DNA of 64,000 nucleotides from Planctomycetota bacterium (GCA_012960845.1 DUAN01000189.1:2942-66941); one strand, 5' to 3'; counted from the first letter of the stretch, positions 1,250 through 63,155 are shown. The notes: generated by a model not told the origin, from the letters alone. Numbers and translations: made by a program.

Positions 1250-3079
1250 TCAACGCTCGACGAAGGTTCCGTGATTCTCCTCGGCCAATAGTCTCATCAT
1301 CTGGGATGCGGCAGGGTCCAGATGGAATCCAATGGTGTGAATCTTGACCTTGCGCTGCTGGTTGCGAGCACGAATCGCAGCGAGGATCCCTCCCGGCTCG
1401 ACAATTTTCCCCATCGTGGGAGCTCCGTCACTGAGGAAGTAGATGGTGTTGACTTCCGGGTCATCGAGAGCAGAAATCAAGGTGTCATAGACATTGGTCA
1501 TCCCCCGAGGACCTAGCGATCTGACGTAATCCATCGCATCGGAGCGAATCCCATCCTCCATCTCGACGAGACCCGGTCGCCAGGGGGTAAAGGTGCTCTC
1601 GAAGGCGATGATGTTGAACTGGGTGCCGTCGGGGATCCCGTCGAGCACTCTCAACAGTTCGCGGCGTGCGACCTCGATCTTGGCCATCTTCTCTCTCTTA
1701 CCAGTCTTGCCGGATGAGTCTTCATCGACACCGGTTCCACCACGCTGGATCCGACCTCCGGGCAGTTTGACCGTATCGACCTCGTAGGGTTCTTCCATGC
1801 TCCCGGAAATATCGACGATGAAGGTGACGAAGCGGCTGAGTACTCGCAGTCCATAATAGGTACCGGTGGTGCTCTCCGAAGACTCCTCACGGATTCGCTG
1901 GTACTCCTCGCGGGAAATCCCGCGGATCTCTGCATCTTTTCCTTCTCGGTCCCACCACGAGGTCCAGGAGACTTCACTGGGGCCATAGTCCTGGCCCGTC
2001 AACCAGACCAGTGCATCGCAGATATCATCGAGGACTCGACCCTCATGCTTTCCAACCCGCTTGACCAGAGCTTCGGCCACCTCCTTGCCGCCGATCTTCC
2101 GTAGCGCCTGAACCGTCGACACCTGCACCTCGACAAATGCGTCCTTCAGCATCGGGAGCAAGATTTTGATCACTTCAGGGTCGTGAGTATCGCCGAAGAT
2201 ATCGACCGCACAGGCTCGTACGGTCCAGTGTTTACTTTTCAGAGCCCTGTGAAAGGTACGGCTCTGATCATCGGCTTCCAGCTGCTGGAGAGCCTGAAGC
2301 ACAGCCACCTGCAACTTGGCATCGTTGACCCTGAACAACTTGCCCAGTTTCTTCTTGGAAGACTCGACCCGGTGCATGCGGATCAGATCGACGATCAATG
2401 CCTGGTTGTGCGGCGGGATCTTGCGATTCCCGAGAATTTTAGCGGCGGACTCCCCCGCCGCAGAATTGTCGGCGCGCAGTGCGATGGAGAGAAGAATATT
2501 CTGCGACTCGACATCGAGTGCCGGGACCCTGAGGATCCCCTTCTCGGCGATGTAATCTGACTCTCCCTGACTCAGGTCACGGTCCCAACAGTCTCTCACC
2601 ACCCAGTAGGACCGGGTCGGTAGAATCGTCAGGCCCGACTCCACCACCGCCTGCAATCCAACAGAATGGCGATGGAGCGCTACCAGGCGAATTGCGGATT
2701 CGATGATCGATGTCTTTTCACTTCGATCTTCGATGATCGTCGCGAGAAATTCCGAAGCATCCAGAGAATCGATTTCACCGATCTTCTGAATCGCGTCGAT
2801 CCGTTCCAGAACCTCGAGATTTTTTTGCTGCCTGAACTGTTCTTTCCAGTGTTCTAGACCCTGAGCATCCACCTCGGACGAGCAAAAGAGCACGGAGATC
2901 GAGCACCAGAGGAGTCCCTGACAGATCCAGGCACACCGAGAAGCATTGAACATCAATACACCTTTCCGAGGAGTCGGATGCCACTGCTCTCGAATCGGTT
3001 GAGAGGCACCAATACTGTCGGTACCGAGTCTCGCCACTCGATGGAACCGACTCGAACCTGTTATCCTGTCCATCTCCAA
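1250..3079 (-). CDS. secreted HEAT-repeat / von Willebrand factor A (VWA, MIDAS DxSGS) domain protein; likely true start at internal Met near 2956 (signal peptide MFNASRCAWICQGLLWCSISVLF)
   Basis: HEAT-like repeats (HWTVRACAVDIFGDTHDPEVIKILLPMLKD), VWA/MIDAS motif VTFIVDISGSM, characteristic IYFLSDGAPT; paralog of 51861..53456. Confidence 0.75.
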   Translation of the reverse strand: MEMDRITGSSRFHRVARLGTDSIGASQPIREQWHPTPRKGVLMFNASRCAWICQGLLWCSISVLFCSSEVDAQGLEHWKEQFRQQKNLEVLERIDAIQKIGEIDSLDASEFLATIIEDRSEKTSIIESAIRLVALHRHSVGLQAVVESGLTILPTRSYWVVRDCWDRDLSQGESDYIAEKGILRVPALDVESQNILLSIALRADNSAAGESAAKILGNRKIPPHNQALIVDLIRMHRVESSKKKLGKLFRVNDAKLQVAVLQALQQLEADDQSRTFHRALKSKHWTVRACAVDIFGDTHDPEVIKILLPMLKDAFVEVQVSTVQALRKIGGKEVAEALVKRVGKHEGRVLDDICDALVWLTGQDYGPSEVSWTSWWDREGKDAEIRGISREEYQRIREESSESTTGTYYGLRVLSRFVTFIVDISGSMEEPYEVDTVKLPGGRIQRGGTGVDEDSSGKTGKREKMAKIEVARRELLRVLDGIPDGTQFNIIAFESTFTPWRPGLVEMEDGIRSDAMDYVRSLGPRGMTNVYDTLISALDDPEVNTIYFLSDGAPTMGKIVEPGGILAAIRARNQQRKVKIHTIGFHLDPAASQMMRLLAEENHGTFVER

Positions 3080-3165: not shown

Positions 3166-4242
3166 TTGAAATCTGGCCCCCTGCTGTCCCTCGCTCCGAT
3201 CCTGCTGCTGGGATTTCTCTTCAGCTCTCTTCCACAGATGGGCAGTACTGAAACTCGCCAGCGAAGCGACCAAGAAACACACGCCGCGACTGCAGCGCAA
3301 CACTGGCCCAAACCAACAGGAATTACGATTCTCCTGATGGGCGAAGATCCCGCCGAGAGATTCTCCACAAACTTGCGGTGGGCTCAACAAATCGGATTTC
3401 GCTGGATCCAGATCACATTCCCCGCCTACCAGAGTCGATTCGATTCATCTTCTTTACCGGTAGAGGACCACAGGAGTCCATCCTTGAAGCAAATCTCCCG
3501 AGCGATAGACGACGCCAGGAATGCGGGGATGCAGGTAGCCTTGCAACCGCTGCTGTTGCTCCAGGATCCACACGATCCTCACTGGCGCGGACAGTTGAAA
3601 CCGGTTGAGCCCAGGAGGTGGTTCCGTCATTACCAGCAGTGGATCCTGAGTCTTGCCCAGCTGGCTCAACGACATCAGGTCGACCTGTTCTTCGTCGGTA
3701 GCGAGTTGTCCTCACTGGAATACGACAGCGAAAGTTGGCTTCGCATCATCAAGGATGTACGTCAATCCTTTTCCGGCTGGGTCAGTTACTCTGCCAACTG
3801 GGATCATTGGCAACAGATCGGATTTGCCAGCCAACTCGATGCGCTGGGACTCAACGGTTACATCCCTCTGGCCACCACCAACGATGACCGAGATGAGGCT
3901 CTGGTGGCTCGATGGCTACCATTTCGGTCGAGGATTCATCGCTGGACCCGCGACTCCGGCATTCCGGTATTCTTCAGTGAGTTGGGCTTCCCATCGCACT
4001 CCCTGGGATTGCAGGAACCGTGGAATCACACCGTGGTGGCTGCAGCAGACCCGGTCATACAGGCCCGAGGCTATCAGTCCTTCCTCGACACTTTTTCGAC
4101 AGATCCCCTGCTACAGGGGGTTTTCTTCTATGCACTTCACATGGATGGCGGCGAGCATGACCCGAGTTACACTCCAGCAGGGAAACCTGCTGAGGAATTG
4201 CTCCGAGCCCATCTCCAGAGAGGAACCGGCGAACCCAGATGA
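3166..4242 (+). CDS. putative secreted glycoside hydrolase-like TIM-barrel protein (TTG start, signal peptide)
   Basis: N-terminal signal peptide LLSLAPILLLGFLFSS; FFVGSELS-type catalytic-Glu context and aromatic-rich barrel strands; family not assignable by eye. Confidence 0.5.
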   Translation: MKSGPLLSLAPILLLGFLFSSLPQMGSTETRQRSDQETHAATAAQHWPKPTGITILLMGEDPAERFSTNLRWAQQIGFRWIQITFPAYQSRFDSSSLPVEDHRSPSLKQISRAIDDARNAGMQVALQPLLLLQDPHDPHWRGQLKPVEPRRWFRHYQQWILSLAQLAQRHQVDLFFVGSELSSLEYDSESWLRIIKDVRQSFSGWVSYSANWDHWQQIGFASQLDALGLNGYIPLATTNDDRDEALVARWLPFRSRIHRWTRDSGIPVFFSELGFPSHSLGLQEPWNHTVVAAADPVIQARGYQSFLDTFSTDPLLQGVFFYALHMDGGEHDPSYTPAGKPAEELLRAHLQRGTGEPR

Positions 4243-7619: not shown

Positions 7620-7692
7620 GGCCCTGTAGCTCAGTGGATAGAGCACCGGCCTCCGAAGCCGGGTGTCGCACGTTCGAATCGTGCCAGGGTCG
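7620..7692 (+). tRNA. tRNA-Arg (anticodon CCG)
   Basis: Cloverleaf read by hand: acceptor GGCCCTG/CAGGGTC, D-arm GCTC-AGTGGATA-GAGC, anticodon stem CCGGC/GCCGG with loop CTCCGAA (anticodon CCG), T-arm GCACG-TTCGAAT-CGTGC; no encoded CCA. Confidence 0.9.
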
Positions 7693-7701
7693 TTCAAATC
7701 G

Positions 7702-7727
7702 GCGCCGGGAGTCCTTTCTCCCGGCGC
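7702..7727 (+). terminator. perfect 10-bp stem-loop (GCGCCGGGAG-TCCTTT-CTCCCGGCGC) immediately 3' of tRNA-Arg
   Basis: Perfect inverted repeat read in sequence; no obvious T-tract (high-GC genome), so terminator or processing-hairpin function is inferred. Confidence 0.45.
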
Positions 7728-7749
7728 TGGCTTCGTTGCAGGAGGAGAT

Positions 7750-8589
7750 CTGAACTCACTCAATACCGCTCCGGAGCGACCCGACACCTGGGTCATCGGA
7801 GATGTTCACGGCTGTCACGCCACCCTCTCCCAACTGCTCGAATCGTTGCACAAGAGCGATCCAGCGTGCCACTTCGTCTTCGTCGGTGACCTGGTGGGTA
7901 AGGGCCCCTCGAGTCTCGAGGTGCTGAAGACGGTTCATTCTCTCGGAGATCGTGCCGAGGTGATTCTGGGCAATCATGATCTTCATCTACTGGCGATCCA
8001 CGCCCAGGTCACCACAGCACGTGCTGGAGACCACCTGGAAGAGTGCCTACAACACACCGCTCTCACTCAGCCGGAACCGTGGCAATGGCCTCGCTGGCTG
8101 GCGCAGAAGCCGCTGGCGCTGGTCGTGGCCGAATCTTCCGGAATTCCCTGGCTGGTGGTTCACGCCGGGCTTCACCCGCAGTGGAGTGTCGCCGAGGTGA
8201 TGACTCGAGCGATGCACCTCTCTCAGCGGATTCGCAGTGGCGACTGGTCCTGGTATCAAAATCCGAACGATCCGGATGGAGTCACCGCAGCCTACTTGAC
8301 CCGGGTGCGAGGATTGAAGAAAGACCTGTCACTGGCGGATCAGTGGACCGGTGCGCTCGATACCTGTCCGCCGACCGTGACTCCGTGGTTCCAGGTCGAG
8401 GATCGTGCGACCCGCGAGCACGCCACCATCACGGGCCACTGGGCTGCTCTGGGGCTGGTTCGACATCAGAAGCATGTCAGCATCGATACCGGCTGCGTTT
8501 ATGGAGGAGCACTGGTAGCACTCTCGCTGAACAGCGGGGTGACCCGGCGAGTCGAATGCCTGCCAGAGGATCGAATCGTGACCGATTAG
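7750..8589 (+). CDS. apaH: bis(5'-nucleosyl)-tetraphosphatase (symmetrical), ApaH-like metallophosphoesterase; start uncertain (no in-frame ATG/GTG/TTG after the tRNA; CTG at ~7750 preceded by GGAGGAG)
   Basis: Near-identity of motifs to E. coli ApaH: WVIGDVHGC, GDLVxxGPxSLEVL, VILGNHDLHLL, TGHWAALG...IDTGCVYGG. Confidence 0.8.
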   Translation: MNSLNTAPERPDTWVIGDVHGCHATLSQLLESLHKSDPACHFVFVGDLVGKGPSSLEVLKTVHSLGDRAEVILGNHDLHLLAIHAQVTTARAGDHLEECLQHTALTQPEPWQWPRWLAQKPLALVVAESSGIPWLVVHAGLHPQWSVAEVMTRAMHLSQRIRSGDWSWYQNPNDPDGVTAAYLTRVRGLKKDLSLADQWTGALDTCPPTVTPWFQVEDRATREHATITGHWAALGLVRHQKHVSIDTGCVYGGALVALSLNSGVTRRVECLPEDRIVTD

Positions 8590-9377
8590 ACCTCGTCTTC
8601 GAGTAACTCATCGATGATGTAGGTGCCACTTCTCTGGTCCTTGTGGACGCTGATCAACTTGTGTTTCTCGGCATCGACGAGCAACTTGGAGAAGTGTGTG
8701 TAACCGTGATATTCCTCGCTGAAGGTCGGTTGCTTGCGTTTCATCGTTTGCTTGACCATCGAGGCCCAGATCACCTCATAGTTCTCTCGTTGCAGTGCAG
8801 CGATGGAACTGATGAGCAGGGAGAATGCGGCGTCCTGATCCTTGCTCAACTTTCGTGAGACTTTCTTGGTGGTCCTACGGGTTCTCTTCTTGCGAGTTCG
8901 AACCAGGTCTTCATAGAAGATGAACTCATCGCAGTTATCGATGAGCAGGTTACTGGACGAGTGCTTGACACCGAGACCGATGATCTTCTTGTTATTCTCT
9001 CGCAACTGGGAAACCAGTGGAGAGAAATCGCTATCGCCGGAGATCAACACGAAGGTATCGACGTGTGGCTTCGAGTAGGAAAGTTCCAGGGCGTCGACCA
9101 CCATCTTGATATCGGCGCTATTCTTTCCCGACATCTTGCGCTCAGGAATATCGATCAGCTCGATGGCACACTCATGGAAGGGCCGCTTGTACTGGGTCCA
9201 GTTGGACCAGTCGGCGTAGGCCCTCTTGACCGTGATCTTGCCCTTCTCGACCAGACGATCGAGAATCTTGACGATATCCAGTTTGGCGATCTTGGCTTCC
9301 TTGACACCGATGGCGATGTTGTCGAGGTCGACAAATACGGCGATCTGGTGCTCCTGGTCGACGTTGTTATTGTTCAA
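8586..9377 (-). CDS. NYN-domain (PIN-like RNase) protein with C-terminal OST-HTH/LOTUS-like domain
   Basis: IAVFVDLDN...SGDSDFSPLV NYN signature followed by Lys/Arg linker and LOTUS-like helical domain. Confidence 0.65.
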   Translation of the reverse strand: MNNNNVDQEHQIAVFVDLDNIAIGVKEAKIAKLDIVKILDRLVEKGKITVKRAYADWSNWTQYKRPFHECAIELIDIPERKMSGKNSADIKMVVDALELSYSKPHVDTFVLISGDSDFSPLVSQLRENNKKIIGLGVKHSSSNLLIDNCDEFIFYEDLVRTRKKRTRRTTKKVSRKLSKDQDAAFSLLISSIAALQRENYEVIWASMVKQTMKRKQPTFSEEYHGYTHFSKLLVDAEKHKLISVHKDQRSGTYIIDELLEDEV

Positions 9378-9633
9378 TTCAGTCCCCCTTCGATCGGGGT
9401 ACCGGCTCGTCCGCCATTCCTGAAAACAGAAGAGGACGCCAGTTCATCTGGAGAAATCAGTCCCTCAGCGATTCCTCCCCGGGGAATCCACTACTGGACC
9501 TGGGGTCGATCCCCGACCGAGGATCGACGCTCTGCTTCCCCGATGGGAAGCAGACCTGCGCATCATGGCATGTGTGCCCCTGTCGATGCAACCCCGCTCG
9601 GGCTTCGATCTGAGGAAGATCGAGGCAGAGCGC

Positions 9634-10881
9634 TCAGGGGGCGCAGGGGAATCCCTGCGCAGGCGATGGATCGGGGCCGTATTCGGGAAACGGGGCCGCC
9701 GGAGCAGGTCCCGCGGAAAAGACGAAATCGAGGATCCGGATCGGATCGCCCAGCGTCAGGCGGGAGTCATCATCGACATCCAGTGCCTCGAGACAGGGGC
9801 TCGTCTCGACCCCAAACAGCACCAGTAATTCGTGAATCGCATCGGTCAGATCGACCACACCATCTCGGTTGGTATCGCCGCGAATAAAGACCGCCGGAAC
9901 CGAACTGGCATCGAGCGGATTGAATCCGAACTGTGCCTCCTCGAAATTGGAAACCCCGTCGAGATCCTGGTCTCCGAGAGGATCCGCCAGCAACGCTCGC
10001 TGAAGCCCGGTCAGATCTCCATGCCCGTTGGGATTGGTGACCAGTTCGACCGAGACGATCTCGAATTCAGCAGAAATCGTGACCAGCGAAGAGCCATCTC
10101 GACAAACCACCGTGACCGAGCCGTCGCCATTGGCAGCGATACCGAGGGGTCGATCCGCAACGTCGATCACGGATTCCACTCCCTGCTCTCCCACCACCAC
10201 CACTTCGCTGCTGGTTTGGCAGCAAAACCATGCTCGTCCCTGCAAATCGGTGGTCACTGCGATGGGAAAGGTACCCACCGCCGCACTCCACAACACTTCT
10301 CCGGTCGACGACAATCTGGTCAAGCCCTCCTTTTCGGCGACCCAAACCCCTCCAGCAGCAGCGGCACTGATCCCAGTCGGGAAGAAACCGACCGGATAGG
10401 TCGCGAGCCACTGACCGGAGTCATCGAGTCGATAGACCTGATTGGCGTAGGAGCAACTGACCCAGATGTGTCCCTCGGTATCGATGGAGATGCCATAAGG
10501 AACCGAGCCGACCGGATGAGTGGAGACGATTCCGGCACCCGACTCGATCCGGATCACATCATCGAGCCCCGGTCGGGTTCCCCACAGCTGGCCGCTGGCA
10601 GCGATGACCAGCGACTGAACGCCCACCACCGTATCGATGACCTCGATGACGGCACCACTGGAATCGACATGAATCACCTGGTTGTTCTCCTCGATGGCGA
10701 TCCAGCCTCCGCCACTGGCGGTGCGTGCGATGGCTCTCAGGTCGGTGGACAGATTCACGATGGGAGTAGAACCCGACTCTCCATGGACCCACAGAGTCTG
10801 CTGGTCGCCATACCAGGCGCCCTGGCCATGGAGCAACGTCGGCAATGCGATGGCACAGCAGAGCCAAGATAGATGGATCAT
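9634..10881 (-). CDS. secreted beta-propeller (NHL/SMP-30-like) protein with C-terminal dockerin-like module; start set at MIHLSWLCCAIALPTLL signal peptide (ORF could extend to 10986)
   Basis: Signal peptide; repeated blade-like segments; C-terminal D-x-N-x-D-G-x-x-D-L-x-D EF-hand-like dockerin repeats ending ...FVFSAGPAPAAPFPEYG...C. Confidence 0.65.
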   Translation of the reverse strand: MIHLSWLCCAIALPTLLHGQGAWYGDQQTLWVHGESGSTPIVNLSTDLRAIARTASGGGWIAIEENNQVIHVDSSGAVIEVIDTVVGVQSLVIAASGQLWGTRPGLDDVIRIESGAGIVSTHPVGSVPYGISIDTEGHIWVSCSYANQVYRLDDSGQWLATYPVGFFPTGISAAAAGGVWVAEKEGLTRLSSTGEVLWSAAVGTFPIAVTTDLQGRAWFCCQTSSEVVVVGEQGVESVIDVADRPLGIAANGDGSVTVVCRDGSSLVTISAEFEIVSVELVTNPNGHGDLTGLQRALLADPLGDQDLDGVSNFEEAQFGFNPLDASSVPAVFIRGDTNRDGVVDLTDAIHELLVLFGVETSPCLEALDVDDDSRLTLGDPIRILDFVFSAGPAPAAPFPEYGPDPSPAQGFPCAP

Positions 10882-10926
10882 GGTACTGAAGGACAGGTTG
10901 CTGAAGGGCATGTTGCTGAAGGGCAA
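10882..10926 (-). repeat. three tandem 15-nt repeats (minus strand TGCCCTTCAGCAACN) abutting the start codon of the 9634..10881 gene
   Basis: Seen directly: + strand GGTACTGAAGGACAG / GTTGCTGAAGGGCAT / GTTGCTGAAGGGCAA. Confidence 0.6.
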
Positions 10927-10967
10927 GGTGATTCCTTTCTCAAAAGGGGATGGACAGGTCAAGTTTC

Positions 10968-12596
10968 TCATCCGGTGGTCTCGCAATCCAGGTCGTCATC
11001 GCTCAGGTCATCCCCTGCGACGGGGAAAGGGTATAGCGGAGGAGGGCCCTGTGAAAAGAGGAAAGACAAGATTTGGATTCCATCGGAAAGATCCAGCGTT
11101 CCGTCGTCGTTGGTGTCGGCGGAATCGTCGCAATCGATCGAAGTTCCGAGAAACAGATGCTCGAGTAATCGAATCGGATCGGCCAGATCCAGTTGTCCGT
11201 CGAGATTCAGATCGGCACGGATGAAGGCTCCGATGACCCCGTGCACGCTGATCGACTCGATCCCCTGCTGGGTGGTATAAACACGTCCGCCGGAGACGCA
11301 GATCCGGTTGGGAAGATCCCCACCGGTGAGGATCTCTATTCGCTCACCACTGTCGAGCTGGTAACGCGACACGGTACCGGCGAAGTATTCCGCCACGAGA
11401 AAGGTACCCGCGGCCCCCTGGGTCACGGCACTTTGTACGGTGTCCGACGATTCCATCGGGTATTCCATCAGTAGAGTTCTACTGTTGAGATCGATGCGAT
11501 ACACCACTGCACTGCCGCCAAAGATGGTCAGCAAAGCACTCTGGTCATCGAGAACGTGCAGATCACTGGGTGCGGGGAAATCGGAAGTCTCGACGTCGAT
11601 CACCAGTAGGTCGAGCAACTGTCCATCGTTGGGGTCGATCCACTGCAATTGGGGAGCAGCCGTGAAATCATCGCCCGGGAAGCCCACCGGAACCAGCAAC
11701 GATCCATCTTCCAGCGCTGCAACAGTCGAGATGCCACCGGCAACTTCGATCCGCTGAAGGACTTCCCCGGTCAGTGGATCGAGGATCACGATGTTCTCAT
11801 CCGACCCATCAAAACTACCGCCATTGGAAGAAACGATGATCTCCCCGTTCCAGCCGAGGGCCAGTCCCGATGGGTATCCGATGTCGGCTCCCGAACTGTC
11901 GCTGAAGGGTACAGCGGTGACGTTTCCGCTGATCAGGTCGACTCTGAACAGGCTACTGATGGTCGAGCAACAGACCCACAGATCGGAACCGGAGAGCAAC
12001 AGATCTGTCGGATAATATCCGACATCAAAGGTGCGCAGGACCTCGAGAGTCCGAGCATCGAACTCGATCACCTGATTTGCACTGTGATCCTCGACCGCCT
12101 CACCCAAGGGCGCGACATCGCCACAGATGGAGACATAACCATACTGATGGGCGTCATCAATGACGATCGAGTAAGGGTGAGAGTCGACGTTGGAAGTGGG
12201 AATCTCGGTGGAGATCTGGGCGATCGGTTCTCCCGCAAGAGAGAGGACCGGGATCCCGCCGACCAGTATCCATCCGACCAGTAAGGAATCTCTCCAGTGG
12301 CCCCGATAGAATTGATTGAGGAGGAGAGAATAGAACGATTTCAGCAACTGAATGCGGCCTCTCTGCTCGGAGTTCTGGGCCGATTCCACGCACTGTGCGT
12401 GAATCGGAGGGATCCAGCGAAGAAAACGAAGGATGTCAATCTCCGACGATTTCACGGACAGAAGGTCTTCTGGCTTCCGGATCGTCCTCTCCCTGCGCCT
12501 TCCCACGACACTTCGTAGTGGCTTTCCAGACCCACGCCTGGAGTTGCAGGGGTTGTCCCCGGTTACAGCGGCGGCACCGCGGTGGATTCTCACCAC
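10968..12596 (-). CDS. secreted beta-propeller (YVTN/NHL-like) protein with C-terminal dockerin-like module; true start probably downstream of 12596 near the hydrophobic segment SLLVGWILVGGIPVLSLA
   Basis: Blade-like repeats, C-terminal ADLNLDGQLDLADPIRLLEHLF...DTNDDGTLDLSDGIQILSFLFSQGPPPLYPFP...C module shared with two other genes in the window. Confidence 0.65.
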   Translation of the reverse strand: MVRIHRGAAAVTGDNPCNSRRGSGKPLRSVVGRRRERTIRKPEDLLSVKSSEIDILRFLRWIPPIHAQCVESAQNSEQRGRIQLLKSFYSLLLNQFYRGHWRDSLLVGWILVGGIPVLSLAGEPIAQISTEIPTSNVDSHPYSIVIDDAHQYGYVSICGDVAPLGEAVEDHSANQVIEFDARTLEVLRTFDVGYYPTDLLLSGSDLWVCCSTISSLFRVDLISGNVTAVPFSDSSGADIGYPSGLALGWNGEIIVSSNGGSFDGSDENIVILDPLTGEVLQRIEVAGGISTVAALEDGSLLVPVGFPGDDFTAAPQLQWIDPNDGQLLDLLVIDVETSDFPAPSDLHVLDDQSALLTIFGGSAVVYRIDLNSRTLLMEYPMESSDTVQSAVTQGAAGTFLVAEYFAGTVSRYQLDSGERIEILTGGDLPNRICVSGGRVYTTQQGIESISVHGVIGAFIRADLNLDGQLDLADPIRLLEHLFLGTSIDCDDSADTNDDGTLDLSDGIQILSFLFSQGPPPLYPFPVAGDDLSDDDLDCETTG

Positions 12597-12711
12597 ACTT
12601 CCGATCCGGGTTGCCCCGAATCAATCCTGTCACGGCTCTAGATACAGAACCTTTCACGACGGTTCAAGGGCCAACAGTTGAAATCCGTCAGATCCAGGCC
12701 GACAATGTGGC

Positions 12712-13833
12712 ATGGCCAAATCATCATCCAGATCCCGATCTTCCAGCCGCAAGGTGACCGTGGCCACCCTTCCCGCAAGGCTCAAGGAGGGCCCTCCCCC
12801 CATCACCGTGGTGGTCGGGCAGGAGCAACTACTACGCCGTGAAGCGATCGCGATGTTGCTCGATTCTGTGCCGGGCGGCACCCCTGATCCCGACTCGATC
12901 CTGCGCTACCAGGGGACTCGAAGCGCCACCGATGAACAGATTCGTGAGATCTTTGATGAATTGAGGACACCGAGCCTGTTCGGGGGTGGGCCGGTAGTGA
13001 TCGTCCAGGATGCTCAGAACTGGTTCAAATCTGACCCCGATTCCTGGGTCCAGTTCTTCTCATCCGCCCCCACCGGATCACTGCTGATCCTCACCGCCGA
13101 TGCTCTCGATGGACGGAGCAAGGTGGCCAAGGCGATCGGCAAGTTTGGACTCACCATCTCGGCGGATCGGCCCTTTTCCCGTCCACCCCCATGGCAGCCA
13201 GATGCCAACCCCTGGGATCACGAACTGAACTCCTGGGTGATCCATCGCTTTCACCATCATTCGCTGAAGGTGACGGCTCCGGTGGCCCAGTTACTCATCG
13301 AGCGCATCGGGCCCCAGATGGATCAACTCGCCAGCACCATCGAGAAGATCTCCACCATCTGTGACTCCCGTCAGATCGAACAGATCGATGAGAGTATCAT
13401 CGTCGAGAATAGTGCCGCCGGTGGCGACGGAACTGCTTTTGAGCTGGTCGACTCCTGGTTCGAACAGGATCGAGTGCGATCACTCCGAGTGCTCTCCGAT
13501 ATCGTCGAGCGCGGCGCACTCGATGAAAAGAATCAACGAGTGCGAGATCCTCAACGATTGCTGCTACAGTTTGTGGCGCTGTCTCTCAAACGTGCACGGG
13601 AACTGAGAAGCGTTCACCGCATCGTAGCGGAGGGTGGAGGAGAAAAGCAGATTCTCGAGCAGGCAGGGATTGCCCGACCGTTTCTTCCGCGGATTCGCAA
13701 ACAGTATCGAACTTGTGATCTTCCCAGGACCCTGAAAATCATCGAGACCCTGATCGAGATGGACTGGCAACTGAAGAGTGGTGCTGGAGCCTTGCCGGTG
13801 GAGTTGATGGAGCGCGCAGTGGTCAGCGTCTGA
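12712..13833 (+). CDS. holA: DNA polymerase III delta subunit
   Basis: N-terminal PITVVVGQEQLLRREAI clamp-loader-delta motif, DUF-like delta N-domain and C-terminal helical domain, size 373 aa. Confidence 0.7.
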   Translation: MAKSSSRSRSSSRKVTVATLPARLKEGPPPITVVVGQEQLLRREAIAMLLDSVPGGTPDPDSILRYQGTRSATDEQIREIFDELRTPSLFGGGPVVIVQDAQNWFKSDPDSWVQFFSSAPTGSLLILTADALDGRSKVAKAIGKFGLTISADRPFSRPPPWQPDANPWDHELNSWVIHRFHHHSLKVTAPVAQLLIERIGPQMDQLASTIEKISTICDSRQIEQIDESIIVENSAAGGDGTAFELVDSWFEQDRVRSLRVLSDIVERGALDEKNQRVRDPQRLLLQFVALSLKRARELRSVHRIVAEGGGEKQILEQAGIARPFLPRIRKQYRTCDLPRTLKIIETLIEMDWQLKSGAGALPVELMERAVVSV

Positions 13834-13845
13834 GCGGCGACTGCC

Positions 13846-14364
13846 TCAGGGGGACTCCAGTCGAATACTTCGCATCCTGGGAACAATCTGGCGAAAGACT
13901 TCCTCGCTCCCCTGACCCCTGGATATCCACATCACATGGATCTCGACCAGCAACTCATCGATGTAATCATCGCTCGGAATGGTGCGATAATTGACATCTC
14001 TTTCGCCATCGCGATCTTGCCTGACGCTCACGATCAACTTGTCTCGCCCCTGTTGCTTGGAAATGGTGCCGTATCGCACTTCGACAGAAATCCCCGGCCA
14101 GTGAGCGAGCAGCGGGTCCCACGGAGGATTATTGATCAAATCAGTGACCGTTCCGCCGTCGCGGATCGTCCCCTCAAGGGCGGACAGAACCACCTCCGAG
14201 ACCTCGATGGCGCGGATTCGATCGACCGCACGTCGATGAGATGCCGTACCTGCGGCAAACAGAGCGATCGCGGCGCTGATCCCCACCGTGAGGATTCCCA
14301 GAGCCACCACGACCTCGAGCAGGGTGAACCCGGTTTCCTTGCTCTCCATCTTCATCGTTGCCAC
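13846..14364 (-). CDS. GspI-like minor pseudopilin (prepilin-type N-terminal cleavage/methylation domain)
   Basis: Class III signal: KETG|FTLLEVVVALGIL with Glu+5; small 150-170 aa protein; last gene of pseudopilin operon. Confidence 0.7.
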   Translation of the reverse strand: MATMKMESKETGFTLLEVVVALGILTVGISAAIALFAAGTASHRRAVDRIRAIEVSEVVLSALEGTIRDGGTVTDLINNPPWDPLLAHWPGISVEVRYGTISKQQGRDKLIVSVRQDRDGERDVNYRTIPSDDYIDELLVEIHVMWISRGQGSEEVFRQIVPRMRSIRLESP

Positions 14365-15434
14365 CCCGGATCCCTGGCCCCTGGGATCCTCACCGTCTTA
14401 CGGAATTCGGAACCGTGGACGACAAACCGAAGACGGGAGTGCTCCACCGCAGTGGTGCCTCGCATCCCTCTATCACAGTCGAGAAAAGCACCACTGGTGA
14501 GCCGCCCCACTCGAATCCATTCAGAGTCGATACGGATGTAATTGTCGGGACCGATCGGATACTGAGCGGTCGAATCGACGAGGATGTCTCCGCTACTCCC
14601 GTCGATATCCTCACTCAGTCGGGCAAGTGCAGCGGAACGGGCCGGTTTCAGCACCAGCAACACCTCGACAGTATCGGGAAAGACATCATCGAAGGGATCA
14701 TCTCGGCTTGCTGAATCCCAGTAGATTCCCGACTGGCGGTCCATCGGCAAGATGCCCCGCGTCGAATCCCAGAAGGAAAGCGGTGGTTGCACCTTGCCAG
14801 CGACAAAGCGACGACGATCTCCACCCCAGAACGACCATTCGATGTGGAGTACTCCATCTGCGATGGGACGGCTGCGCCGCGGCGTCCCGTCGACATCCGG
14901 CGCCAGGTTGACATCATTGAACAGGGTACCTTCGCCCCCGATAGGACTCTTGAAGCCTCTCCACAACACCTCGGACCCCTCCTCGGGTCCCATCGAGTAA
15001 CTGACCTCGCACAGGCCACCCGGGGCGCGCAGAATTCCCAATCGAGCTTCCATCGAGTCATTATTGTAATCGATATCGGCGAGACCACCGGTGAGAGATC
15101 CAGCAATCCGGGTTATCGGGTTCCTGACCTCCTCGTCGAGCACGCTGACCATCCTCAAACGGGATCGCCCCCGGCCATCTCGGTCACAGAGCAGCAAGAC
15201 TTCGACCAGACCACCACCGGGTCCCGGATCTGGTTGTGAGAAGAGTGATCGCAGGTCGGCGCAGAGAGGCTCGAGGATCGCTTCTGCTCGCTCGATCGAT
15301 TCGCGTCTCGATTCGCCGACTTGCCAGGTGGAGATGCCATCTCTCAGGAACACGACAAGACCGCTACCGAGCATCACGAAGATACCCAGTGCCACCAGAA
15401 TCTCGATGAGGGTCAGTCCCTGTTCTTTGTTCAT
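14352..15434 (-). CDS. GspJ-like minor pseudopilin; start at MNKEQG|LTLIEIL (TGATG overlap with upstream stop)
   Basis: Prepilin-type N-terminus with Glu+5, GspJ-like helix following; stop/start overlap with giant upstream gene. Confidence 0.65.
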   Translation of the reverse strand: MNKEQGLTLIEILVALGIFVMLGSGLVVFLRDGISTWQVGESRRESIERAEAILEPLCADLRSLFSQPDPGPGGGLVEVLLLCDRDGRGRSRLRMVSVLDEEVRNPITRIAGSLTGGLADIDYNNDSMEARLGILRAPGGLCEVSYSMGPEEGSEVLWRGFKSPIGGEGTLFNDVNLAPDVDGTPRRSRPIADGVLHIEWSFWGGDRRRFVAGKVQPPLSFWDSTRGILPMDRQSGIYWDSASRDDPFDDVFPDTVEVLLVLKPARSAALARLSEDIDGSSGDILVDSTAQYPIGPDNYIRIDSEWIRVGRLTSGAFLDCDRGMRGTTAVEHSRLRFVVHGSEFRKTVRIPGARDPGWQR

Positions 15435-18400
15435 CAGTACGGATATTCCTCGTGATGAAGGATTCGCCACTCCTTACGGTGTTCGATTCCAAGGGTCTTC
15501 AAGACGGGAAGATGTTTCCATTCATCATTCCACACCCCCGACTGTCGAGTTTGGCCATGGGCTCCTTTTCGGTGACGGTAGTGGATTCGAATTTCCAAGG
15601 CATCGCCAAACTGTCCCAGACGATTGACATCGGCCGGATCGTCAAACAAATAGAGGCCACCAGGCTGATTGGTCGGAATCGAGTCCCACCCGGGAACGCC
15701 ATCGAATCGAGCGAGAACCCTGACCGATCCTGCGGTGGCTCGATTGCGAGACTGTTCCACTTCCCAGCGGATTCGATCCCACATGGTTCCGGGCATCGTC
15801 CAGGCTCGCTCGAGGTACTGCAGATCCTTCGATTCCACCAGTGGTTGATATCGATCGTGATGTCGAGCGAGCAGTTCGATGACTGGAGTACCGGCGGGTT
15901 GGACCTTGAAATCGGTACCGAAGCGACCACGGAAAATTCCTTTTCCAGTACGATCATCGCGAAACAGCCCGAAGCTGCTGCCCTGCGCACCGGTATGAGC
16001 GATGATCTCGTCTGGAGTCGTAATGATGCCGTCATCCACCAGCAGGTAACCCTCGCCGGAGGGGAAGCCGGCCAACTGACGATTCCCACCTTCGTTTCCG
16101 GGAGGCCCCATCACCTCCAGAGTCAATCCTGATTCTGCGACCTGCCCGGCGAGCCGAGCCACCGGAATACTGGGGAGGGGAACCAGAGGTTCTCGTCCCA
16201 GTTCATTGCTGGTACGTTCGGTGGCGAGCATTCCTCGGGTCATCACATCGATGATGCGGGAGGGAATCAACCGCAACCGATGGGTGTTGGTCACTACCTG
16301 AACAGCGCCTGCAGCATCGGTATATGACCACTGATAAACATAGCCACCCACCGAAGATCCCAACTGACCACGCAACACATTGCGCAGTACACCGTTCGAT
16401 GCTTGTTCGTAGTACAGCACTTCGTTGGTCGGACCACTGATCATTTCGAGGAACCCACCATTGGGTGGAAGGTTGGCCGTGTTATCGACCTGGATCGAGT
16501 TGACCACTTCTACTCTCAGATCACGATTGGGGTCATAGGGAACCACCTCCCCTTCACCCAGGGCGTTCTCGTCAAGGTAGGGATCGCGGGGCAGATCCTG
16601 CTCCAGTTGGATCACCACATCGGGCTCGACCTGGCCGGGATCAAAGGTGTAGTGCATCACCTCATCATCGACCTGGAATAATCCTTCTCGCTTGCCCAGT
16701 CCAAATCCTCGAGGATCACCTTTGGAAAATGTTCGAACACCTCCCGTGGGCAAACTGGCGCCACTTTCCGGACCCTGCGGTTGCGGAGCAGAAGCGGTGA
16801 GTTTCGATCGAGCCAGCAAGTGGATCCTGTCGAGGACACCACCCGGTTGTTCGGAATCCTGTTTCGAATAGCCGCTTTGAATCACCTCGGTACGCACCCC
16901 CGACGGTAAGCCAGGCGACGCCTGGATCGCCATCGTGCGGAATCCACCATTGGAAGCCGCAGGAAATGCATAGGTTTCAACATCACTCGAGTCAAGGCGG
17001 CTGAAACGCACTTCGTCGAGGGTCCCCGGAGCATCGATTCCATCGCCACTGATCATCGATGACCCGAAACGAATCTCCCCGTTGGTCGAGGACGGCAACC
17101 CACCGCTGGGGAATCGACGGATCCGTGGATCCTGTCCCGGACGATAGATCCCTTCCGGAGGCCAGTAGAAACTGACATAGGTTCCACTATCGGTTTCTCT
17201 CACCTTGCGAACTCTCAGCGGCGTATCTTCCCGAAGTCTGTTGGTCGGATCGCCATAGCCATCTCCGAGGATCACCTCGTCGGCAAATCCAGCGGATGCC
17301 CCGACTGCGCGGACCACCTGGGTGATCTCCTGCCCCGCGGCATGACGGACGATGCCATTCATATCCCACAACGGGCGATTTCGACGGAATGGATCACCGG
17401 TGTTGATGTACTTGTCTCCGGTGAAGCCGCGAAATGCATCGACCTGATCGGGATCACAGATGAAGAACTTCCCCTCGGCAATTTGTGTGTATCGAATCCA
17501 CTCTGCATCTTGCAGTAGTCCGATACTCTGGGAACCGGGCATGTAATCGATCTGGATCACGCCGGAAGGCGCGTAGCTTTGATTCAAATCGGTCGCATTC
17601 GATTCAATCGAAACACCCCTGACCTGCAGAGTCGTTGTGGAAGTGGCAGTGATGATCCCGACGGTCGCCGTAGAGTTCAGTAAAGCTCTACCCATGGCGG
17701 TGAATCGATAAAGGCCAGGAACCGGTCCCGGAGTGATGGAGGAATACTTGGCGAATTCAGTTGCGACCAGCCGCCTCGGCTCGGTTCCCTGCTGGGTCCA
17801 TTGTCGAATGTGAAGATATCCCCGAGGTGGGAAACCCAGTTCGAGAGGATGGCTCCCATTGGTCTGCACCAGCAGCGAGAGCGAGTTGGCGGCAAACGGC
17901 TCCAGTTCCAGGGTGCTGGTCACCGGACTGCCGACAGAGAATGGAACCTGTGTCGAGGCTCGGGAAAATGTCGCTGGAGTCAGTTCCACTGCACCGTTAC
18001 TGGTGTTGAAGGCGGAAACTCTCATCGTTGGAGTGACCTCGATCTCCAGCGAAGCTCCCCCCGGACCGATGATGATGTCGTTGGAAGAATCGGTCAGAGC
18101 ACGTCGCGGATCGGAGTTGGCAAGGGGTAAGGAGTAGCCCAGAAGCCTCACGGGAGTACCGGAAGCATGACTCGACCGAACCGTCCCGCGGACACCGCGT
18201 CCGATCGGAGGAGAGCCGTTGGGACCTGGCGGCCGGACGATGAAGGAAGCCCCTTCCCGACCGGAGTAATCGATCGCTTCCGACCCCACCAGCAGAGTCC
18301 CGTTGGGAGGAAATCTTGTGGCCATGTCGCCATCGACGATGGAAACACGGTTACCGGAGAAGGAAAGGGCGCCATTGAGACGAGATAACCAGGACTGACG

Positions 18401-21175
18401 ACCGACCGGACGACGATCGATCAGCAGCACCAGATCTCCCGGCCTGGTCGATCTCCAACCGGCAGAGATGTGGTACCAGGTATCATCGGCGAAGGTGGTA
18501 GTGGTGACCGAGTGTCGCACCTCAGCTGCTGGAAGCACCTTGCTATCCCATGCAACTGCGGAACCGGTCTCATCAAAGACTTGCAGTACCAACTCCTGTG
18601 TATCCCCGGAGAAGAACAATCTCACACGATCGCGATAGCGATCCAGAGTCGGGCCTACCGAGTCAAAAATGATGCGATTGCCACTGCGCGATCCCCAGCG
18701 CGGGCGATACCAGAAATCGACCATTGCAGGAACTGTCGAAAGAGCGTCGTTGTTGGCACCCTGATCCGGCGTCAATTCGATTTGCGGCTCTCGCAATCCC
18801 CGCCCCCTGCGACCACCGCCTTGAGTCGGGTCAGCTTCTTGCTGTAGAAGAATTGAGCGCTTCCACGAACCATCTTCCAGTTCGTATCCTTCGATGGTCT
18901 CGTTGAAATGCTCGACCTCGAGCAAGCCCACCGCTCCGAATCCGTAGTTTCCAGAATCTCGATCGTAGGCGATGGTCTCCCCACGAAGAGTTCCCTCATC
19001 GAGAGAGGGACCGGTGAACTTTCGACGGTTGAGGGGGATCGGCCCACTGACCACAAGGTTCGACGCCCTACCGGGAACGAAAGTCGTATTGAAACGAGAA
19101 AAGCGCCCCCCTCCCGGATCCCGTGTGGCATAGATGGAAGCCCAATCCTGCTGAGTTTCTAGCCTCAATGAGAGCGGATCGGGAGGTGCGACCTCGATCA
19201 CTTCACGATACCGGACTGTCGCTTGCGGAGTACCCACAGGACTCCTGGCAACACCGGTAGACTCCACCGTGTAGATCTCCGATGTCGCATAGCAAAATCC
19301 AGTGGTAGAGATGGAGAGTCGTGGCTGATTTGGATTCAAGGCGTTGATGAGAATCGATTCTGAATCACCCCCATCGAGGACACCACTCAACTGAGCAGCT
19401 TCCACCACCTCACGAAAAGCAGCAAAACCAGAGATCGGCATCGCCTCCAGCAAGAGATCGGTCAACCCGCGAGCCTCTTTGACGGTCACTCCATTGAAGT
19501 TCTGCTCGAATCGATCGGTAGAGAGACCGGTCAATACCGCCTCGATGACTCTACGAGGGGCGGTGTTGATGTTGATGGGGTGCCTCAGTGCGGCACTGAC
19601 CATCGCCTCACGCTCAGCCCACTCGAATTTCAACGGCTCCTTGAGTATCACCCCGCCCTGGAAGATGGCTCCAGTTCCCATACCTCTGAATCCGCCCCGA
19701 GGAGTCGGGAACGCCCCGGCAGCAAGGCCGTACTCCACCTTGGAAGGATCATTGATACTACGAATCCGAACGACCGTCCCCGGATTGAAGAAGTCATATC
19801 GTGGAAGTCGCATCTGTGGCACTCCCAGCAGCGCACTATTGGTGATCTCGCCCTCGACCATCTGTTCCTGCGACCAAGCTCTTGGCTGAGTTGAGCTGGT
19901 AGTGATCAGGTCGCGGATCTGTTCAAACTCGAATGCCGAAAATGTTTCCATACCTGGGATATCGAATATTTCCTGGTAAGCGAGGATGGCACTGGGGAAG
20001 TAGGACTTGCCGCGTTTCTTGATCTTCTTCAGCTCTGGCGCGATGAAAGTCAAATACACACCTTTGAATGCATTCCCCCTGGCCTTGGTCAGACCAAACC
20101 CTTCGACCACCTCGGCCGCTTCGATCACTGCGGCTTTACCGCGAATCGACTCGAGCAGATCGACCACTTCCTTCGGGATATTATTATCGAGGAACAACTT
20201 TCGTGCCTTGCGATACTCTGCCTCGTCTACCTCCTCAGGCTCTTTCTGGAGCAAGGAAGGATCGATTCCAGCGCGCACCAGCATCTCGGTGGTCAGTCCC
20301 CAGTCCGCCATATTTTCAAAACTCAGGCCGACCACAGCAAGGGTCTGGAGGAAGTAAGGCACCACTGACCAATCGGCAATCTGGCGGATTCCAATCGGAG
20401 TACGAAAAGTGGCGATGTCTCCGTCCGAAAGGTTGGCGAGTCGGTGCAAGAATACCTTCAAGCCGCGCAGATCGAAGACCGGCCACCCTTTCTGGTGCTC
20501 CCATGTCCCCGACAAGTACTGCCCCCGGAAGATTCCGGTCAATGCCTTTTCGGTCTTGCCTGTGTAGGAGATCGCCTCGACAGTGAAGAAGAGCGGATTG
20601 AGGATCACGACCACACCATCCACCGTCTCCGGATCATCATCCGCAGGAAAGGACGAGGTGTCGTCGAGTGGCAATTCACCAATATCCGTTTCATAACTGA
20701 TCGCTTCTGAAAGGTGACTCCCGGCCAGCATGTTGCCGATGAGATTGGGCATCGCAGAGTTGATGTTGATCTTACCCTGCTCATCGGTCACCCGAGCATC
20801 GAGGATCACAGCAGAATCACCGCGCATCTGGAAGACCTCCGGCGCTGTGCCGACCACCGGCACGGAGGTGATCGTTGCGGGAAAATCGACCTTCAGTTCG
20901 TCGAGGCCGTCGATCAGATCTGGTGCCTCTGTACCGGGTCTCCACCGGTCTCGTTCACGACTGTGGTGGGTATCAAATAGTTTACTCAGAGCATGGCTCC
21001 TGGCACTTTGCGCTGCGAGACTCGCTCTTTGTTGCGCCAGTGATCGAGCGGCGCCTTTTTCCTGAAGTTTCATCGAGATCACGAATGGAGTGCCGATCGC
21101 GGCCAGGGCGGAAAGCACCAGGATCACCATCAACAGGGCCATTCCCCGCTCACGATACCGTATTAAATTATCCAC
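15434..21175 (-). CDS. giant (1913 aa) GspK-like minor pseudopilin / tip-like protein with large extracellular insertions
   Basis: N-terminus RERG|MALLMVILVLSALAAIG, prepilin-like but lacking Glu+5 as in GspK; two GspK-type helix-hairpin-helix motifs (KININSAMPNLIGNML and HPININTAPRRVIEAVLTGLS); single uninterrupted 5.7-kb ORF. Confidence 0.75.
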   Translation of the reverse strand: MDNLIRYRERGMALLMVILVLSALAAIGTPFVISMKLQEKGAARSLAQQRASLAAQSARSHALSKLFDTHHSRERDRWRPGTEAPDLIDGLDELKVDFPATITSVPVVGTAPEVFQMRGDSAVILDARVTDEQGKININSAMPNLIGNMLAGSHLSEAISYETDIGELPLDDTSSFPADDDPETVDGVVVILNPLFFTVEAISYTGKTEKALTGIFRGQYLSGTWEHQKGWPVFDLRGLKVFLHRLANLSDGDIATFRTPIGIRQIADWSVVPYFLQTLAVVGLSFENMADWGLTTEMLVRAGIDPSLLQKEPEEVDEAEYRKARKLFLDNNIPKEVVDLLESIRGKAAVIEAAEVVEGFGLTKARGNAFKGVYLTFIAPELKKIKKRGKSYFPSAILAYQEIFDIPGMETFSAFEFEQIRDLITTSSTQPRAWSQEQMVEGEITNSALLGVPQMRLPRYDFFNPGTVVRIRSINDPSKVEYGLAAGAFPTPRGGFRGMGTGAIFQGGVILKEPLKFEWAEREAMVSAALRHPININTAPRRVIEAVLTGLSTDRFEQNFNGVTVKEARGLTDLLLEAMPISGFAAFREVVEAAQLSGVLDGGDSESILINALNPNQPRLSISTTGFCYATSEIYTVESTGVARSPVGTPQATVRYREVIEVAPPDPLSLRLETQQDWASIYATRDPGGGRFSRFNTTFVPGRASNLVVSGPIPLNRRKFTGPSLDEGTLRGETIAYDRDSGNYGFGAVGLLEVEHFNETIEGYELEDGSWKRSILLQQEADPTQGGGRRGRGLREPQIELTPDQGANNDALSTVPAMVDFWYRPRWGSRSGNRIIFDSVGPTLDRYRDRVRLFFSGDTQELVLQVFDETGSAVAWDSKVLPAAEVRHSVTTTTFADDTWYHISAGWRSTRPGDLVLLIDRRPVGRQSWLSRLNGALSFSGNRVSIVDGDMATRFPPNGTLLVGSEAIDYSGREGASFIVRPPGPNGSPPIGRGVRGTVRSSHASGTPVRLLGYSLPLANSDPRRALTDSSNDIIIGPGGASLEIEVTPTMRVSAFNTSNGAVELTPATFSRASTQVPFSVGSPVTSTLELEPFAANSLSLLVQTNGSHPLELGFPPRGYLHIRQWTQQGTEPRRLVATEFAKYSSITPGPVPGLYRFTAMGRALLNSTATVGIITATSTTTLQVRGVSIESNATDLNQSYAPSGVIQIDYMPGSQSIGLLQDAEWIRYTQIAEGKFFICDPDQVDAFRGFTGDKYINTGDPFRRNRPLWDMNGIVRHAAGQEITQVVRAVGASAGFADEVILGDGYGDPTNRLREDTPLRVRKVRETDSGTYVSFYWPPEGIYRPGQDPRIRRFPSGGLPSSTNGEIRFGSSMISGDGIDAPGTLDEVRFSRLDSSDVETYAFPAASNGGFRTMAIQASPGLPSGVRTEVIQSGYSKQDSEQPGGVLDRIHLLARSKLTASAPQPQGPESGASLPTGGVRTFSKGDPRGFGLGKREGLFQVDDEVMHYTFDPGQVEPDVVIQLEQDLPRDPYLDENALGEGEVVPYDPNRDLRVEVVNSIQVDNTANLPPNGGFLEMISGPTNEVLYYEQASNGVLRNVLRGQLGSSVGGYVYQWSYTDAAGAVQVVTNTHRLRLIPSRIIDVMTRGMLATERTSNELGREPLVPLPSIPVARLAGQVAESGLTLEVMGPPGNEGGNRQLAGFPSGEGYLLVDDGIITTPDEIIAHTGAQGSSFGLFRDDRTGKGIFRGRFGTDFKVQPAGTPVIELLARHHDRYQPLVESKDLQYLERAWTMPGTMWDRIRWEVEQSRNRATAGSVRVLARFDGVPGWDSIPTNQPGGLYLFDDPADVNRLGQFGDALEIRIHYRHRKGAHGQTRQSGVWNDEWKHLPVLKTLGIEHRKEWRILHHEEYPY

Positions 21176-50192: not shown

Positions 50193-50350
50193 GGTTCCCC
50201 CCTTATGATCTCACGGCATGTACCTCAGGGAGAATAGGTGAGCAAAGCGGGTCGGTCAAGAAGCGTGCGTTGCGTTGTCGCGAATCGGACTTCATCATGG
50301 AGGCCATGGTCCCACCTTTGAGTTCCACGACATCCTCGGGAAGGGAGTCG

Positions 50351-63030: not shown

Positions 63031-63122
63031 TCGAAGACCTCCACTTTCCGGATTCAAAAAAGGTAACCGATGGTCTGCCCCAGCGGGAGGCTGCAAAAGA
63101 TAATGGACCAGGAGGTGAAGCA

Positions 63123-63145: not shown

Positions 63146-63155
63146 CGAAGATTAT

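Follow-up and report, generated by a model that had tools for sequence, protein, structure and literature searches.

A shared C-terminal extended dockerin module in predicted beta-propeller and cohesin-like proteins of a Planctomycetota bacterium

Three genes and their shared C-terminal module

Within a 64,000-nucleotide stretch of DNA from a Planctomycetota bacterium (GCA_012960845.1, DUAN01000189.1:2942-66941; the whole of this stretch is referred to below as the window), three minus-strand genes encode proteins, here named A, B and C, that end in the same module, which we describe as a divergent dockerin with an extended tail. A and B lie head to tail, with longest open reading frames (ORFs) at 9634-10986 and 10968-12596, and C runs in across the right edge of the window and has its end at 63445 (in-window frame 63445-63999). 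Gene A (9634-10971, minus strand), delineated from its ORF, Pfam and PDB matches and orthologs, combines a signal-peptide-like N-terminus, an NHL/Vgb-lyase-like beta-propeller, a thrombospondin-type-3 (TSP3)-like Ca loop and a C-terminal extended dockerin. Gene B (10968-12347, minus strand), delineated from its ORF, ortholog alignment and an inventory of start codons, joins a signal-peptide-like N-terminus and a probable, divergent NHL-like beta-propeller to the same C-terminal extended dockerin. The window holds only the 3' part of gene C (63445-64000, minus strand), which encodes an IPT/TIG domain and the extended dockerin; the full gene, of 436 amino acids (aa), was placed at L001:7038-8348, and the signal peptide and the cohesin-like and FN3-like domains of C lie past position 64000, outside the window.

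The true starts of A and B are downstream of the longest-ORF starts. For B the start is probably the TTG at 12347, giving 459 aa, since this is the sole start codon near the conserved hydrophobic segment, aligns with the Met starts of orthologs and reproduces the length of the NCBI entries HIK82010.1 and MEO2149924.1. For A the candidates at 10971, 10911 and 10881 are ambiguous, and the ATG at 10971 is where a public gene call of 445 aa (LWDU01, Logan) begins. The TGA stop of B and the ATG of A overlap as ATGA at 10968-10971, which suggests that the two genes share a transcript and may be coupled in translation. A scan for promoters and terminators around the genes gave no excess over shuffled expectation. 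All three proteins begin with signal-peptide-like N-termini whose position is kept among orthologs, as illustrated by C (MKFNYVLALFCLAMAMATSIGAQ/E) and by A orthologs (...LILAQG/TWYGDQ). Public records describe the proteins as hypothetical, 'streptogramin lyase', 'YncE beta-propeller' or 'IPT/TIG domain-containing', and none names a dockerin or a cohesin.

The shared module spans about 88 alignable residues with a pairwise identity of 44% and 25 invariant columns (F-I-R, N, D, D, D, L-F, C, D, L-D-I-I, F, G-P-P, P-F-P, G-D, C). In A it occupies the last 88 residues plus the stop codon (9634-9900, minus strand), with the F-hand Ca loops DTNRDGVVDLTD and DVDDDSRLTLGD, a linker Cys, the tail GPAPAAPFPEYGPDP and a C-terminal Cys. 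The same elements recur in the last 89 residues plus stop of B (10968-11237, minus strand; Ca loops DLNLDGQLDLAD and DTNDDGTLDLSD, linker Cys, tail GPPPLYPFPVAGDD, C-terminal Cys) and in the last 90 residues plus stop of C (63445-63717, minus strand; Ca loops VVNGDSQLDIGD and EVNGDALIDLAD, linker Cys, tail GPMPLAPFPEAGLDP, C-terminal Cys). A hidden Markov model (HMM) of the three modules, run against the six-frame translation of the window, gave three matches at E=1e-43 to 1e-46, with the next best at E=2.1. The regular expression GPxPxxPFP found the same three places in the window and nowhere else, and a broader family profile run over the window returned no module copy beyond the three. When A was compared with B by BLASTP, 43% identity over 86 residues (E=1e-15) was limited to the module.

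The likeness of the module among the three proteins far exceeds chance, and alignment, HMM and regular expression agree on the dockerin-like C-terminal module that an earlier note on this DNA, made from the sequence alone, had described as common to all three. That note also spoke of a terminal Cys pair; the pair is indeed conserved, with one Cys lying in the inter-repeat linker and the other 2-4 residues from the C-terminus, so that only the word 'terminal' has to be given up. We also considered A and B as recent tandem duplicates and rejected this, as their likeness beyond the dockerin is faint and confined to the level of blades.

A dockerin core with a Pro-rich tail

The core of the module, about 60 residues, is a divergent, type-I-like member of the dockerin superfamily, an assignment based on the match of the family profile to solved dockerins, the predicted fold, the Ca-ligand pattern and the Dockerin_1 matches of sibling modules. 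When a profile of 17 module sequences was compared with the PDB, its positions 7-62 matched the dockerins 2y3n_B (E=4.2e-5), 1daq (4.9e-4), 2mte (5.7e-4) and 4uyp_B (8.8e-4). The AlphaFold model of isolated module A had a mean predicted local distance difference test score (pLDDT) of 94.4 and a predicted template modeling score (pTM) of 0.83. Foldseek ranks 1-33 for this model against the PDB were all dockerins, most of them from cohesin-dockerin complexes, with target-normalised template modeling (TM) scores mostly of 0.6-0.83 and root-mean-square deviations (rmsd) of 1.4-3.0 Å over ~54-84 columns (typically ~60), and EF-hand proteins superposed poorly, at TM ~0.2. By this modeling the module adopts the three-helix dockerin fold. 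Both Ca loops of A and of B present Asp/Asn at positions 1, 3, 5, 9 and 12, and the same positions are kept as Asp/Asn in both repeats across 427 family modules.

Among Pfam families, Dockerin_1 (PF00404) was the sole domain-specific weak match on the window modules, and it was found at E<=0.01 in 40 of 61 diverse sibling modules and above its cut-off in 9 of the 10 top family proteins. A canonical EF-hand pair was rejected as an identification, with Pfam EF-hand families (PF13499 and related) scoring 11-19 bits on the modules, under cut-offs of 25-30, and with the poor superposition described above. NCBIfam, run on the full proteins and on the isolated modules, contributed no dockerin or sorting-domain model and only a faint CelK dockerin-end match. 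The description 'dockerin-like' is thus borne out by the profile-to-PDB match, the fold and the Ca-ligand pattern.

Past the core, the last ~25-30 residues form a Pro-rich tail with the consensus LFxGGPxPxxPFPxxGxDPxxDxLxC. Because solved dockerins align only as far as profile position ~62, the extended tail and the Cys pair mark a distinct dockerin subtype. Across 427 full-length modules the family signature reads F6 (95%), R8 (100%), G9-D10, N12, D14 and D21 (100%), continues with C38 (98%), D43, N45, D47 and D54 (100%), and reaches through the tail with P72 (98%), G77 (96%), D79 (93%) and C88 (94%). The tail and its Cys, singled out beforehand as shared features, are therefore real and conserved across the family, not noise, and no description of the extended tail or the Cys pair was found in the library of papers searched. 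At its start the tail reads LFxGGPxPxxP and so mirrors LFxGGxxPxC, the linker that follows repeat 1, a likeness that points to a duplicated unit of ~33 residues. In the isolated model of module A the tail has a pLDDT of 84-95, and DSSP assigns isolated beta-bridges exactly at F5, C36, G75 and C86, as fits a tail packed on the core; we infer that the tail probably folds back onto the core and is held there by the clasp of a candidate C36-C86 disulfide. In about 23% of extended dockerins, profile position 76 is an additional Cys and a further one lies past the C-terminal Cys, a pattern that suggests a subfamily with a second disulfide; the window copies lack both.

The breadth of the family was taken from an exhaustive profile search over 50%-identity clusters, which returned 41,854 at E<=1e-3 and 24,815 at E<=1e-10; a word-indexed search with the three modules gave only 23 short fragments and was uninformative. 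Many family proteins carry 2-7 full module copies and some up to 13, and some of the copies are N-terminal. At genome loci, 102 of the 119 copies were C-terminal (<=15 residues from the stop codon) and 16 were not, and in multi-copy proteins 124 copies followed the signal peptide, 192 were internal and 128 were C-terminal. For taxonomy we used a narrow pattern scan of species-representative genomes, by which 331 relatives were confirmed and the best 80 examined; 71 of these 80 best loci are labelled Planctomycetota or Planctomycetia. In the sample retrieved, the extended dockerin is essentially a module of planctomycetes (Planctomycetota metagenome-assembled genomes, MAGs), and even with the narrow scan it recurs several times per genome.

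The window comes from the marine MAG lineage around 'Planctomycetes bacterium UBA1146', in which three loci (L005-L007) are 97-99% identical to it. Three others (L009, L018 and L025, from QNYK01, 'Bacillota bacterium MAG 7') show the planctomycete synteny of B, A and an NYN gene and a module A 74% identical to that of the window; they have probably been assigned to the wrong phylum. The module, with both Cys, is retained in orthologs of A, B and C down to ~40-55% overall identity. The module thus occurs elsewhere in genomes, is conserved in orthologs and is predicted to be folded and not an unstructured linker, the three points on which the earlier note had let its proposal stand or fall.

Propeller bodies and a cohesin-like protein

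By fold family, A is clearly an NHL/Vgb-lyase-type beta-propeller as judged from its sequence matches: Pfam Vgb_lyase (PF24684) scored 54.6 bits against a cut-off of 50 and NHL (PF01436) 26.1 bits against a cut-off of 20, and the PDB returned designed Pizza propellers (E=1e-12) and the Vgb lyases 2qc5 (E=8e-12) and 2z2n (E=8.5e-11). B is a probable, divergent beta-propeller. Its NHL score of 19.8 bits falls just under the cut-off of 20, weak NHL, ScyE and Vgb matches appear in B and its orthologs, and across the B family (the window copy and 7 orthologs) NHL was matched in 4 of 8 sequences and Vgb_lyase in 2 of 8; a comparison of B with PDB sequences gave no match. The earlier description of both proteins as propellers accordingly stands for A and is only probable for B. 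Between the propeller and the dockerin of A (window ~9900-10010, minus strand) lies a TSP3-like Asp-rich loop, DPLGDQDLDGVSNFEEAQFGFNPLD, several positions of which are invariant among A orthologs; from its sequence it may be a further Ca2+ site or a linker.

Protein C was also considered as propeller-type cargo, which proved wrong, its architecture being signal peptide, cohesin-like domain, FN3-like domain, IPT/TIG and dockerin. The complete 436-aa gene was recovered from identical public contigs, and Pfam matches only its IPT/TIG domain. We obtained an AlphaFold model of an ortholog (P0174, 96% identical) from an alignment of 24 orthologs, with a mean pLDDT of 83, in which a signal helix is followed by a beta-sandwich (23-173), a second beta domain (181-261), the IPT/TIG domain (265-349) and the dockerin; residues 21-170 have a pLDDT of 87-95. 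The best PDB fold match of the model was 2w1n, the cohesin+FN3 tandem of C. perfringens GH84C (E=1.9e-11), and next came ~25 single cohesins at TM 0.72-0.84 and rmsd 2.3-3.3 Å, among them 2vn5_A (TM 0.84, rmsd 2.3 Å), 1g1k, 1ohz_A and the archaeal non-cellulosomal 2xdh of Archaeoglobus fulgidus. In the model, the N-terminal domain of C has the nine-stranded flattened beta-sandwich (jelly-roll) fold of cohesins.

A profile built from this domain of C picks up cohesin-like domains in many multi-dockerin proteins, some of which have Pfam Cohesin matches in another part of the chain. It also provides an indirect link to Pfam Cohesin, as it matches the cohesin-like domains of P0039, a protein whose Pfam Cohesin match is elsewhere in its chain; Pfam Cohesin was found alongside the module in P0029 and P0039, 2 of the 10 family proteins scanned. 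With cohesin-like, FN3-like, TIG and dockerin domains in one protein, C has by prediction the architecture of an adaptor scaffoldin and is a candidate docking partner or adaptor. The search for cohesin-like partners that the earlier note had recommended thus yielded one candidate by fold comparison, and its alternative that these are cohesin-binding surface proteins gains support from the cohesin-like domain of C, the binding itself being presumed.

Among the proteins P0024, P0077, P0083, P0097 and P0039 we noted a recurrent arrangement of signal peptide, dockerin, two cohesin-like domains and dockerin (~550 aa), as well as seven-copy poly-dockerins without a cohesin. Such proteins could self-assemble into networks.

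Docking, rival explanations and known systems

We consider it reasonably probable that A, B and C belong to a non-cellulosomal cohesin-dockerin docking system that operates through a planctomycete-type extended dockerin. In this proposal, the three proteins would be exported by their Sec signal peptides, and oxidative folding after export would close the clasp by joining the linker Cys to the C-terminal one through a disulfide. With Ca2+ bound, the dockerins of A and B would then dock non-covalently, in the extracytoplasmic space, on cohesin-like modules of exported proteins such as C, and C would use its own dockerin to bind either a further cohesin or a second C molecule. Beta-propeller proteins would in this way be displayed on the surface by a non-cellulosomal assembly resembling the 'planctosome', a Ca2+-dependent cohesin-dockerin surface complex proposed for freshwater Planctomycetes (Andrei et al. 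2019, ISME J, PMC6461901). The disulfide, cohesin-dockerin binding, the pairing of particular cohesins with particular dockerins and the final cellular location are what we infer in this scheme. The cohesin-like fold of C is encoded 50 kb away from A and B in the same genome, and such folds are abundant in the same protein family network.

Several observations weigh against the docking proposal. Pfam Dockerin_1 scored 13.1 and 14.9 bits (E=0.03 and 0.11) on window modules, under its cut-off of 22.9, and gave no match on module B, so that the Dockerin_1 scan suggested in the earlier note recovers sibling modules and leaves the window copies sub-threshold. The first Ca loop of C, VVNGDSQLDIGD, has Val at position 1, as in all close orthologs, and in the full-length C-ortholog model the last 17 tail residues have a pLDDT <50, which makes the packed tail not robust. 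Pfam Cohesin (PF00963) had no match on C at E<=10, and the N-terminal domain of C found no cohesin among PDB sequences either as a single sequence or as a profile; since sequence profiles do not detect it, we call protein C 'cohesin-like' and not a member of the Pfam family. The domain profile of C found no further cohesin-like domains in the 64-kb window, and to our knowledge many non-cellulosomal dockerins have no identified partner.

Beyond B, the window holds a pseudopilin-type cluster on the minus strand (13846-23197) with three N_methyl proteins (13846-14364, 14352-15470 and 22556-23197), a 1913-aa ORF without a Pfam match (15434-21175) and a LamG-like protein (21168-22562). It is followed, up to 32971 on the same strand, by a TPR protein, two ORFs without matches, a double-FHA protein (28333-30894) and an FHA+GAF+sigma-54 activator (30878-32971). 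Genes of the GspD/E/F type (secretin, ATPase, platform) were not seen among the window ORFs scanned. Between B and the cluster lies a divergent holA-like gene (12712-13833, plus strand), and the order holA (divergent) / B-A-NYN / ApaH-like metallophosphatase (convergent), window 7663-13833, is kept in 13 species-level MAGs (loci L005-L017), down to ~40% holA identity. This conserved synteny indicates that the dockerin-propeller genes are old residents of a housekeeping neighbourhood. A role for A and B as cargo of the neighbouring fibre system, or as its partners, is not supported, with holA lying between, the synteny being of a housekeeping kind and nothing tying the dockerin to the pseudopilins; a general export of the folded proteins by a type II secretion system (T2SS) is possible.

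Elsewhere in the window, tRNA-Pro(CGG) (63156-63232, minus strand) lies inside the 5' end of the longest M29 aminopeptidase ORF (61789-63228, minus strand), which is therefore over-extended (public calls give 413 aa), and tRNA-Arg(CCG) (7620-7692, plus strand) overlaps the longest metallophosphatase ORF. Two paralogous proteins with HEAT repeats and a VWA domain at opposite window ends (1250-3079 and 51861-53564, both minus strand), an NPCBM-domain protein (49916-51733, plus strand) and a GH113 glycoside hydrolase (3166-4242) may serve other envelope or glycan-related functions.

Three other explanations of the module have to be set against docking. Weak, sub-threshold matches to Pfam EF-hand families would fit a generic EF-hand or low-complexity (Asp/Pro-rich) resemblance without common ancestry or function, a reading to which we give almost no credence: 25 columns are invariant among three otherwise unrelated proteins, the HMM separates them at 1e-43 or better from a background of 2.1, both Cys are invariant in the 24 C orthologs and in 8 of 8 aligned A and 8 of 8 aligned B sequences, and the fold matches dockerins specifically, with EF-hand proteins left at TM ~0.2. 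HMM, invariant columns, fold and family conservation effectively refute it. It is also very improbable that the module serves as a C-terminal signal for sorting or secretion, read by a pseudopilin/T2SS-like or an exosortase-like machine with A and B as cargo. T2SS substrates are folded periplasmic proteins, 102 of the 119 genome-locus copies finish no more than 15 residues before the stop codon, and the pseudopilin-type cluster, with its three N_methyl proteins and a T2SSG-like match, is 1.2 kb away; however, full-length copies with the tail also stand after signal peptides and internally, at 2-13 per protein, the chain runs on for only 2-4 residues after the last Cys, with no hydrophobic or basic segment there, and the module is a well-folded, predicted Ca-binding dockerin homologue. 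The divergent holA-like gene and the synteny with housekeeping genes, the lack of GspD/E/F-type genes among the window ORFs scanned and the lack of a sorting-domain match in NCBIfam speak against it as well. Of the 'lineage-specific anchoring or sorting tag' proposed in the earlier note, the lineage specificity holds in the sample retrieved, with 71 of the 80 best loci planctomycete, and the sorting tag is not supported, given the N-terminal, internal and multi-copy placement and the missing transmembrane or basic segment.

Harder to set aside, though still unlikely in our judgement, is a dockerin-derived Ca2+-binding domain that has lost cohesin binding or never had it, and that instead stabilises the exported protein or attaches it to a non-protein ligand, for example peptidoglycan, envelope polysaccharide or holdfast-like material. 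Its Pro-rich tail with the disulfide clasp would then be a ligand-binding or stability element. The enormous size of the family (41,854 clusters) would suit such a role, as would the less biased genome sample, in which most members are single C-terminal copies on unrelated proteins, and the rarity of sequence-recognisable cohesins, Pfam Cohesin being present in 2 of 10 scanned proteins. Cohesin-binding dockerins lack any equivalent of the invariant tail, PDB alignments stopping at profile position ~62, and P0024 has seven dockerins and no cohesin. Against this, cohesin-like folds are present in the same protein set and in C, many of them missed by Pfam, the module retains two-fold internal symmetry and the helix surfaces that bind cohesin, and we know of no carbohydrate-binding dockerin.

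Should the docking proposal hold, three 'hypothetical' proteins would turn out to be components of a single system for surface assembly, in a deep-marine planctomycete lineage that is abundant and uncultured. Both the dockerin side and the cohesin side would then be undercounted by current domain libraries, as about one third of the sampled extended dockerins and the cohesin-like domain of C escape Pfam, and a dedicated extended-dockerin profile that includes the tail and the Cys pair would better the annotation of many thousands of proteins. The planctosome idea would also become testable with defined pairs, namely the cohesin of C against the dockerins of A, B and C. More speculatively, and with less confidence than we attach to docking at this locus, the same parts may reflect a phylum-wide and largely unannotated Planctomycetota extracellular assembly, built from disulfide-clasped extended dockerins and cohesin-like modules too divergent for sequence models to detect, with C-like adaptors or self-polymerising units, with surface cargo other than carbohydrate-active enzymes (CAZymes), the propellers A and B among it, and with a tail that adds a binding or specificity element not present in cellulosomal dockerins. 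Non-cellulosomal dockerins are already expected in the phylum by specialists, and the biology extends a known principle and is not a new one; what is added here is that Pfam misses the window copies and that C carries a Pfam-invisible cohesin-like domain.

Compared with type I dockerins (1daq, 1ohz, 2ccl and 2y3n_B), the module has the same predicted fold and sequence homology over ~56 residues, and shares duplicated 22-residue F-hand repeats, near two-fold symmetry and the usual C-terminal place on secreted proteins. Of these, 1daq, 1ohz and 2ccl are C. thermocellum Cel48S/Xyn10B dockerins and 2y3n_B is from P. cellulosolvens. The 25-30-residue Pro-rich extension, the Cys pair and the F-x-R-G-D lead-in are additional, and none of them aligns to solved dockerins. 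The carriers differ too: type I dockerins sit on clostridial and ruminococcal cellulosome proteins, whereas the planctomycete module is found in a diderm, on beta-propeller and TIG proteins that are not CAZymes. Like PEP-CTERM/exosortase tags and the C-terminal domain (CTD) of the type IX secretion system, it is a short conserved C-terminal module on many unrelated secreted proteins of one lineage; unlike them, it has no transmembrane helix or basic tail, is not bound to the C-terminus, occurs in multiple copies and has a helical, Ca-binding predicted fold.

Cohesin- and dockerin-like modules outside cellulose degradation are known (Peer et al. 2009, cited in PMC6461901), and this is what the module and C share with the non-cellulosomal 2w1n and 2xdh, both of which are matched by the N-terminal half of C; those partners are known by sequence and some by experiment, whereas the cohesin of C is recognised by predicted fold alone. 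Dockerin enrichment in planctomycete genomes has been noted by CAZy-type surveys (PMC5264255, PMC6995999). The planctosome is the closest parallel: as set out in the excerpted text of PMC6461901, it brings together proteins with signal peptide, dockerin and cohesin, including an 'adaptor' that has both modules, like protein C. That text places the planctosome in Nemodlikiaceae with peptidase cargo and describes neither an extended tail nor a disulfide; here the module belongs to marine UBA1146-type MAGs with beta-propeller cargo, and both proposals are purely computational.

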